Below are positions 22,821 to 24,524 of a stretch of DNA of 61,322 nucleotides, in pieces. The notes beneath the pieces are model-generated. The model was not told the origin of the DNA. It ran no database searches and was given only the letters and a program-made list of their open reading frames with translations. The stretch spans positions 1-61,322 of the forward strand of contig JBHIAE010000015.1 of assembly GCA_046758445.1 (NCBI GenBank), written 5' to 3'. The position numbers and the translations under genes were made by a program. Each line of letters opens with the position of its first letter. Position 1 is the first letter of the stretch. Source of the DNA: Candidatus Thorarchaeota archaeon. GTDB taxonomy: Archaea > Asgardarchaeota > Thorarchaeia > Thorarchaeales > Thorarchaeaceae.

Positions 22821-24524
22821 GTGGTTGCAATGGCGGAAAGAACTGGAACTGACCTAACTCGACCTGAAGGAGTTCCCTCCTTTGTGGAAGAGGCCTACTA
22901 CTCAGGAGCGCGATTGGCCGGGGCCATAGACTGGTGTCTGACTCGAAAGGATCGGGAGCTTCACTGTGATGTCCAAGGAGTCCTGACCTCTACTGGACGA
23001 AACGTGAAGTTCAAGGGGCGGATTCTCAAGGTGAAGAAAGGCGTTCTCACAAGACGCATTGCTGTTCTCGTCGAGGAGGACCTGCGCAGAACCCGAAGAG
23101 GGGACCTGGACATGGTTCTGACTGTTGGTGGAAGTGGGGCCACTCAAGAAGACGTCGCGGCGACTGAGATTACTCTTCAGAACTACTTGAAGAGGAATAT
23201 CTCAGAGGACCTCTACTATGATGGACGTGATTTGCAGCAGGCTGTCAAGGAACTAGTGAGAATCAGGAGCGAACAGAGCATATGTACTGTGTGGGGCAAG
23301 AGAGCATCAGACAAGCTGCCCATTATGATTAACGGGATTGTCGTGGGCTTCTCCACAGAGGTTCTTCAACCGCAGAAGGGGACCATTCTTCCGGAGGGTT
23401 TTCTTGAAGTCCGTGTTGAACCAGAAGGCGTCATCGGCGACCCCAAGATCTACCTCGTTGCACAGCCCCAGCTATTGATTGGACCCAGGTCCAACCCAAA
23501 TCTCACAATAATCGCAGACAAAGTGTATATTCAGCCCTTTGCATGGAAAGAGGCCCCTGCATATCGTGATGTCTTGGAGGCGAGAAACCTAACGGTCAAG
23601 CTTAGGTCCGGACAAAGACTCATTGAGAATGTCACATTTGCAGTGCAGGAGGGAGAAATGCTTGCAATCATCGGGGAATCTGGTGCAGGCAAGTCCACTA
23701 CCGTCAAAGCACTCATTGGTGACATCCCCAGCACTGGCGTTGCAAGAATCGCTGGCATTGACTCCAGGCAGACAACTAAGGTACGCCACTTCTTCGGATA
23801 CTGTCCACAGGACCTCTCCTACATGTATGAAACCTTCACTCCTCTAGAGAATATAATCGCGTTCGGAAAGCAATATGACATTCCAGAGTGGCAGCTCATT
23901 CAGAGAGGAAAGTCGCTGCTCAGGGATTTCGGGATTCTGAACAAGGGCAATAACCCCACCAAGGAGCTTAGCGGGGGAGAACAACGAAGAGCATCCATTG
24001 GTGTAGCCATGGCCCACATGCCGAAAGTGCTCTTGATGGACGAGCCCACCAGCGGACTTGATCCGGACAATAGAACAGAGCTATGGCAGTATCTGAACTA
24101 CATAAACCAAGAGTATGGCACCACCATAGTCGTCATCACACACTACCCTATTGAGTCCGAGTTCTGCGACAAGGTCGCTGTTTTCATGCGAGGAAAGAGC
24201 CTCGTATCATATGGAAGTCCACGGAATCTGAAGGAGTCGATGCCTAACAATGGGTTCTCAGTCGGAGTCGTGCTTGAGGAAGTAGATCCCCGGGCCAGGG
24301 CCACTCTAGAGGCTGTAGATGGAGTCAGATTCGTCCTGCAACGGGGTGAGCTCTTGAAGGTGTTTACAGACCAGGCACTTGAGGTCACTGCAGAGAAGTG
24401 TGTTGCTGCACTTGAAGAGAAGGCAATCCCAGTCAAGATTGTAAGGACAAAGGCGGTGGCTGATATGGTCGACTATTACATCGCAATCACCAGAGGTCTG
24501 ATCACAGGCACGGTAGAGAAGTGA
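22821..24524 (+). CDS. ABC ATPase with N-terminal tandem TrmB-C-like domains
   Basis: Walker A GESGAGKST, LSGGE, LLMDEPT and THY. About 250-aa N-extension with two YY.G-initiated repeats and VGGSGATQED. Confidence 0.85.
   Translation: MVAMAERTGTDLTRPEGVPSFVEEAYYSGARLAGAIDWCLTRKDRELHCDVQGVLTSTGRNVKFKGRILKVKKGVLTRRIAVLVEEDLRRTRRGDLDMVLTVGGSGATQEDVAATEITLQNYLKRNISEDLYYDGRDLQQAVKELVRIRSEQSICTVWGKRASDKLPIMINGIVVGFSTEVLQPQKGTILPEGFLEVRVEPEGVIGDPKIYLVAQPQLLIGPRSNPNLTIIADKVYIQPFAWKEAPAYRDVLEARNLTVKLRSGQRLIENVTFAVQEGEMLAIIGESGAGKSTTVKALIGDIPSTGVARIAGIDSRQTTKVRHFFGYCPQDLSYMYETFTPLENIIAFGKQYDIPEWQLIQRGKSLLRDFGILNKGNNPTKELSGGEQRRASIGVAMAHMPKVLLMDEPTSGLDPDNRTELWQYLNYINQEYGTTIVVITHYPIESEFCDKVAVFMRGKSLVSYGSPRNLKESMPNNGFSVGVVLEEVDPRARATLEAVDGVRFVLQRGELLKVFTDQALEVTAEKCVAALEEKAIPVKIVRTKAVADMVDYYIAITRGLITGTVEK

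Follow-up and report, generated by a model that had tools for sequence, protein, structure and literature searches.

The window analysed here is a stretch of 61,322 nucleotides from a Candidatus Thorarchaeota archaeon (GenBank assembly GCA_046758445.1, contig JBHIAE010000015.1, positions 1 to 61,322 of the forward strand). A preliminary description, drawn from the letters of the DNA, had placed at 22896-23535 a pair of TrmB-like sugar-sensing domains fused to an exporter-type ABC ATPase. This region lies within one open reading frame on the plus strand, which stands among other genes for ABC-transporter components. The features to which the text refers are as follows.

21638..22819, plus strand: ABC-2 permease, 393 aa (PF12698, E 4e-21; PF01061 also matches)
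22821..24524, plus strand: fused ABC ATPase ORF, 567 aa from GTG 22821, frame uninterrupted
22881..23204, plus strand: unit 1, residues 21-128, strand, helix and beta-barrel (PF11495, E 2.5e-8)
23118..23162, plus strand: loop with the motif LTVGGSGATQEDVAA, residues 100-114 (aligns to solved TrmB without gaps)
23205..23540, plus strand: unit 2, residues 129-240, a divergent second copy of unit 1 that shares its fold (hhalign, structure match)
23568..24260, plus strand: ABC nucleotide-binding domain, residues 250-480 (PF00005, E 1.1e-24)
24261..24521, plus strand: C-terminal domain like that of DrrA-type ABC-2 ATPases, about 87 residues (TIGR01188 alignment)
24529..28899, plus strand: giant protein of 1456 aa, S8 subtilase-like, with one TM helix and a GIFT/GldG-like domain (PF00082, E 6e-42)
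28901..29890, plus strand: second ABC ATPase, 329 aa, without N-terminal barrels (PF00005, E 2.8e-28)

The genes are closely packed. The permease stop codon lies 1 nt ahead of the fused ATPase ORF, the gene for the S8 protein begins 4 nt past its end, and the order continues downstream with the second ABC ATPase, a 2250-aa protein and a TPR protein. Upstream, the window also carries a GH38 alpha-mannosidase (12348-15344) and, on the minus strand (19039-21435), a 798-aa protein with no Pfam match; both lie outside the module conserved in other lineages.

Although the ORF finder begins the fused ATPase at GTG 22821, its true start is probably ATG 22830, which yields a protein of 564 aa. ATG 22830 is the likelier start because, within window 22820-22832, a GGTGG is found 5 nt ahead of it, immediately after the TAA stop of the permease, and because the aligned Met is the first residue both of the homologues and of the entry in the ESM Atlas. 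Residues are numbered here from the GTG, and the numbers are thus 3 higher than in the likely protein. From either start, about 240 residues stand ahead of the nucleotide-binding domain. The possibility that this extension is a separate upstream gene or the product of a miscalled start was rejected, since the frame is open throughout, the homologues, more than 130 in number, keep its length, and the permease stop lies directly before the ORF.

The translation of the nucleotide-binding domain contains a Walker A (GESGAGKST), a Q-loop (Q330), a signature (LSGGEQRR), a Walker B (LLMDE) and an H-loop (H441), all of them intact and invariant across the family alignment. The top-scoring NCBIfam model for the fused ATPase is TIGR01188 (drrA), which aligns over residues 268-555 with 167.6 bits, below its curated cut-off of 312.45; TIGR03522 (GldA) is also among the matches. 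Judged by these profiles, the protein is DrrA-like, though not a curated member of DrrA. The winged-helix DNA-binding domain PF01978 gave no match to the fused ATPase at E values up to 1.

The N-terminal extension is built of two tandem units, as had been proposed from two stretches of roughly 105 aa that begin YYSG and YYDG. The first unit opens with AYYSGA from residue 25 (Y26 is encoded at nt 22896) and the second with LYYDGR from residue 131, a spacing of 106 residues. Direct comparison of the two by BLASTP is weak (E 0.004), while profile-profile comparison of their family alignments with hhalign gives a probability of 98.4% and an E value of 6.6e-15 over 99 columns. The units are true duplicates, the repeat being well beyond chance. 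An AlphaFold2 model of residues 1-250 (pLDDT 81.7, pTM 0.76) folds each unit as a strand, a helix and then a series of strands, and unit 2 modelled alone reaches a pLDDT of 79.6. Weak Pfam matches to MoCF_biosynth and DUF2117 (residues 84-180) were set aside as chance similarities arising from a common VGGxG string.

Several independent comparisons identify the fold of these units as that of the sugar-binding part of TrmB, the archaeal regulator whose structures are known from Pyrococcus furiosus and Thermococcus litoralis (PDB 3QPH, 2F5T) and which has the same strand, helix and irregular beta-barrel as both units. The Pfam family Regulator_TrmB (PF11495) matches residues 41-120 with 33.9 bits against a gathering score of 22.2 (E 2.5e-8), and a whole-genome scan scores the fused ATPase at 35.2 bits. 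The match covers positions 161-231 of the 233 in the profile, that is, the C-terminal subdomain only; the N-subdomain of the TrmB effector domain was not found in the fused ATPase by the PF11495 search. Relatives of 28-44% identity exceed the gathering cut-off independently, one of them on unit 2. In VIA-align comparisons, the model of unit 1 (residues 22-127) superimposes on residues 248-342 of TrmB 3qph with a Z score of 15.7 and an rmsd of 1.5 A over 92 residues, the next entry being the Pelota N-domain at Z 7.5. For unit 2 alone, set against 48,161 representative chains with no prior filtering by Foldseek, TrmB (residues 249-342) was again the top match (Z 12.8, rmsd 2.2 A, 93 residues), with the runner-up at Z 6.0. 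Foldseek searches of the PDB returned just two significant matches, both TrmB (3qph, E 4e-6; 2f5t, E 6.6e-5), with a probability of 1.00, and the top rows of an ESM Atlas shape search held solely the fusion's own family and TrmB regulators. A feature-based search of the protein atlas gave nothing beyond unrelated clusters of hypothetical proteins, with scores of 0.90 at most. A fold search against the TrmB effector domain had been put forward in the preliminary description as the test on which the idea should stand or fall; the similarity is clear, and TrmB is the best fold match for both units by a wide margin. The organization agrees with the published description of the second TrmB subdomain, in which a strand and a helix are followed by several strands (PMC4158304).

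Sequence searches of solved structures were less direct. A phmmer search with residues 1-250 gave chance matches only and no TrmB, and TrmB was likewise not found among solved structures with a profile of unit 1 alone or with the C-terminal portion of P0141, an Asgard TrmB, by itself. The profile of the whole N-domain reached TrmB at an E value of about 0.7, through unit 2, and a single profile combining units 1 and 2 with full-length P0141 found it at E 0.008, in an alignment to the solved TrmB that ends at residue 335.

The ligand loop of TrmB is recognizable in unit 1. The motif VGGxxAxxED, given in the preliminary description as a sugar-contacting element of TrmB, is literally correct in the solved chain, where it reads V318 G319 G320 M321 F322 A323 V324 I325 E326 D327, and five of the seven sugar contacts (G320, M321, V324, I325 and E326) fall within it (PMC4158304). 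The corresponding residues of unit 1, V102 G103 G104 S105 G106 A107 T108 Q109 E110 D111, align to this segment without gaps, pairing G104 with G320, S105 with M321, T108 with V324, Q109 with I325, E110 with E326 and D111 with D327. A full-length Asgard TrmB also aligns without gaps, reading PVGGIRAQYEDVTADRITIL against LTVGGSGATQEDVAATEITLQ (hhalign probability 94%, E 1.1e-7). Gly320 and Glu326, the two sugar contacts conserved across the TrmB family (PMC4158304), thus have their equivalents in G104 and E110 of the fused ATPase. The remaining contacts are N305 and S229, the latter in the N-subdomain (PMC4158304). Asn305 aligns to Ile80 of unit 1, so that this contact is not kept, and the sugar-recognition helix carrying Ser229 is absent from the fused ATPase.

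Conservation across 134 family members shows which parts of the loop are held most firmly. T101, G103 and D111 are invariant and may serve to shape a turn and not to touch the ligand. Position 104, the Gly320 equivalent, is G in 67% and S in 28% of members, and position 110, the Glu326 equivalent, is E in 49%, Q in 30% and D in 17%, indicating that a hydrogen-bonding side chain is kept there in 96% of the family. Outside the loop, unit 1 is near-invariant at W38, R42, D44-R45, K72-K73 and E85-E86-D87 down to about 25% identity. These patterns bear on the notion that the barrels are an exapted, ligand-free module that stabilizes or spaces the ATPase pair, the motif being a relic of the fold. 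The three invariant residues are shared with TrmB and surround a turn that may be needed for folding, and unit 2 keeps its fold despite having lost the motif, as such a role would allow. We nevertheless regard a purely structural role as improbable, given that unit 1 is conserved well beyond the needs of the fold and that position 110 is polar (E, Q or D) in nearly all members.

The loss of the motif from the second unit, noted from the outset, is apparent in the alignment: unit 2 of the fused ATPase has VAQPQ...LT at the places where unit 1 has VGG...ED. In distant relatives unit 2 still carries VGG and (E/P)D, with an insertion between them. Within the Thorarchaeota subfamily the loop VAQPQLhhGP (residues 213-223, window 23457-23489) is conserved, with Q215, P216, Q217, G221 and P222 invariant in 19 aligned sequences. 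The replacement of the ancestral VGG by this sequence suggests a new, lineage-specific contact surface.

The gene neighbourhood is conserved well beyond the Thorarchaeota. In 18 loci from distant lineages, counted where the fetched stretch or contig was long enough to show the genes, the fused ATPase is always accompanied by an ABC-2 permease and by another ATPase that has no barrels, and the adjacency of permease and fused ATPase is kept in distant Asgard lineages. The permease is of the ABC2_membrane_3 type with a large external loop. The second ATPase, which had gone unmentioned in the preliminary description, retains all of its catalytic motifs and is likely the heterodimer partner of the fused one. 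The simplest reading is one permease type served by a heterodimeric ATPase pair that bears barrels on one subunit only, and, with a plain ATPase present, a sensor would sit on one half of an asymmetric pair. Of the 18 loci, 14 have the giant S8/GIFT protein encoded beside the fused ATPase. In three lineages in which the fused ATPase, permease and second ATPase are contiguous, no S8 gene was found within about 10 kb on one side, so the barrels are kept where S8 is not adjacent.

The S8 protein itself shows weak matches to GIFT and ABC_transp_aux. Its set of genes resembles GldA/GldF/GldG of gliding motility in Bacteroidota, in which an ABC-2 permease and an ATPase are likewise joined by a GIFT-domain membrane protein. 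GldA, however, has no TrmB-like barrels, and in the Asgard system GIFT is fused to an S8 subtilase-like protein and two different ATPases are present. The Asp and His motifs of the protease domain (DTG, HGT) are kept. The catalytic Ser position in GTSxAxPxVAG is T in the window, A in five of six readable orthologues (loci L033, L035, L037, L038, L040 and L041) and S in the sixth; with the catalytic Ser mostly replaced, many copies of the S8 protein may be pseudoproteases. Beyond the TM helix the protein has a cytoplasmic tail, basic and helical and about 78 residues long (residues 1379-1456; window 28665-28896), whose motif, RMRIPEVD...NTLLA.F.Q.E..I.REDLDRI.K.E.LRGL...VGGV, is strongly conserved in Thorarchaeota and recognizable in more distant Asgard lineages.

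With these components in hand, the barrels might be viewed as a docking adaptor by which some cytoplasmic partner, perhaps the S8/GIFT tail, is held to the asymmetric ATPase pair, the loop then serving a structural or interface function. The frequent adjacency of the S8/GIFT gene, together with the conservation of the tail across Thorarchaeota, would suit such an arrangement, as would the structural neighbours of the barrel, which is Sm/SH3-like, a fold also used for protein and RNA binding and often by peptide binders. The conserved AQPQ..GP loop of unit 2 is specific to Thorarchaeota and not sugar-related, and the strictly invariant residues of the unit 1 loop differ from the equivalents of the main sugar contacts. 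Set against this are the retention of the barrels in the three lineages without an adjacent S8 gene and the homology to a family whose sole known ligands are sugars; we therefore consider docking an unlikely function. Prediction of a complex between the N-domain and the S8 tail, run without controls, scored 0.01 and 0.00, the mark being 0.32, and speaks neither for nor against it.

Among the proteins searched, the fusion was found in Asgard archaea only. When residues 1-250 were run exhaustively with HMMER against 1.84 billion representative proteins, no more than 17 clusters were returned, the full-length members of which carry the same fusion without exception. The named members are Asgard throughout (Thor-, Hod-, Odin-, Loki-, Hel-, Sigyn-, Jord-, Frey-, Ran- and Promethearchaeota). 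A profile of the N-domain found matches in 136 of 400 Asgard genomes searched. Usually a genome has a single match, and the ORF that contains it is nearly always some 550-650 aa long. The source genome's own family is almost completely covered (80 of 85 genomes) and several other Asgard families fully so, while many have no match among their searched genomes. Public records name the fused ATPase only as an "ATP-binding cassette domain-containing protein", although PF11495 already appears in its precomputed Pfam annotation. Neither the fusion nor its gene module was found described in the literature searched, which bears out the earlier remark that the fusion is not recognizable among described ABC-2 systems.

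ABC ATPases with fused ligand-binding domains are known already. The MalK C-terminal domain, MetN C2, ModC TOBE and OpuAA CBS are small domains that bind a ligand or a partner and, fused to nucleotide-binding domains, tune the rate of transport; these regulatory domains are C-terminal, borne by importers and drawn from families unrelated to the TrmB barrels. What is new, in the literature searched, is that a duplicated sugar barrel of an archaeal transcription factor stands at the N-terminus of one of two ATPase partners. In TrmB the barrel is part of a regulator, with a winged helix and an N-terminal effector subdomain; in the fusion it is duplicated, mounted on an ABC ATPase and stripped of both of those elements and of Asn305, while unit 1 retains the same VGGxxAxxED loop.

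The reading that we favour, if tentatively, is that the fused ATPase is one of the two ATPase subunits of an Asgard-specific ABC-2 transporter and that a ligand of unit 1 tunes its activity. The transporter would consist of the permease (21638-22819), the fused ATPase and the plain ATPase (28901-29890), and the N-terminus of the fused subunit is a tandem duplicate of the beta-barrel subdomain with which archaeal TrmB regulators hold the glucosyl moiety of their sugar effectors. The ligands known for the PF11495 family are all sugars (PMC4158304), and, the loop being kept as well, the ligand of unit 1 is expected to be sugar-like: a small polar cytoplasmic molecule, most likely a sugar or a sugar-bearing metabolite. 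Unit 2 may take the place of the missing N-subdomain of TrmB as the other wall of the pocket. Occupancy by the ligand would then shift the seating of the barrels on the nucleotide-binding domain and thereby tune ATP hydrolysis and transport, so that within an asymmetric pair of nucleotide-binding domains one half would be gated allosterically. Gating by sugar is plausible on the sequence and model comparisons above; the absence of the N-subdomain, the loss of Asn305 and the partial conservation of Glu at position 110 argue against a strictly TrmB-like mode of binding.

The modulation of an ABC ATPase by a fused ligand-binding domain has a precedent in Wzt of the WzmWzt O-antigen exporter, an ABC-2-type ATPase whose cytoplasmic carbohydrate-binding module recognizes the glycan cap and influences ATP hydrolysis during export (PMC9445017). 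This likeness also invites a different proposal, in which the barrels recognize the substrate itself, a molecule bearing sugar (a lipid-linked glycan, for instance), at the cytoplasmic face and bring it to the ABC-2 channel as in Wzt, and the evidence of homology to TrmB serves it equally. The differences, however, are considerable. The Wzt domain is C-terminal, has another fold and is present on both of two identical ATPase subunits, whereas the module described here is N-terminal, TrmB-derived and carried by just one of two different ATPases. Wzt chains are absent among the structural matches of the barrels, although a relationship is not thereby excluded. The conserved module contains no glycosyltransferase or lipid-carrier genes, and a permease of the ABC2_membrane_3 type with its large external loop lends no support to a Wzm-like channel. 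Substrate capture accordingly appears unlikely to us. Returning to the gating of the ATPase by a ligand of unit 1, an extension of it would make the barrels a sugar or metabolite sensor through which the carbohydrate status of the cytoplasm governs how active the giant S8/GIFT protein is, or how it is displayed or turned over. We hold this coupling to be improbable; if true, it would amount to a new archaeal inside-out signalling device derived from the effector domain of a regulator.

The consequences differ with the answer. The fusion occurs in roughly one of every three Asgard genomes searched, within a conserved module with giant surface proteins. If its barrels bind sugar, it would offer a biochemical handle on a cell-surface system of the closest archaeal relatives of eukaryotes, and it would establish the C-subdomain of TrmB as a portable sensor that works without its N-subdomain. 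If they bind no sugar, it would be a clean case of a ligand-binding fold put to other use.

The remaining TrmB-related sequences of Asgard genomes show a complementary picture of the two subdomains. Most Asgard TrmB-like regulators (ORFs of 250-290 aa) match just positions 1-137 of PF11495, the N-subdomain, as at G000:C1:88313-88714 and about 100 other Asgard loci, and in most of those genomes no C-subdomain was found outside the ABC fusion; the complete effector domain of PF11495 occurs in one of 151 Asgard genomes. A few stand-alone ORFs of 147-168 aa contain a single barrel (G355:C8:66551-66859, G124:C66:1985-2293, G069:C21:9792-10085, G354:C64:41960-42277 and three f21 genomes), some matching unit 2 (positions 119-226 of the N-domain profile) and some unit 1 (positions 13-109), and may be free single-barrel paralogues.
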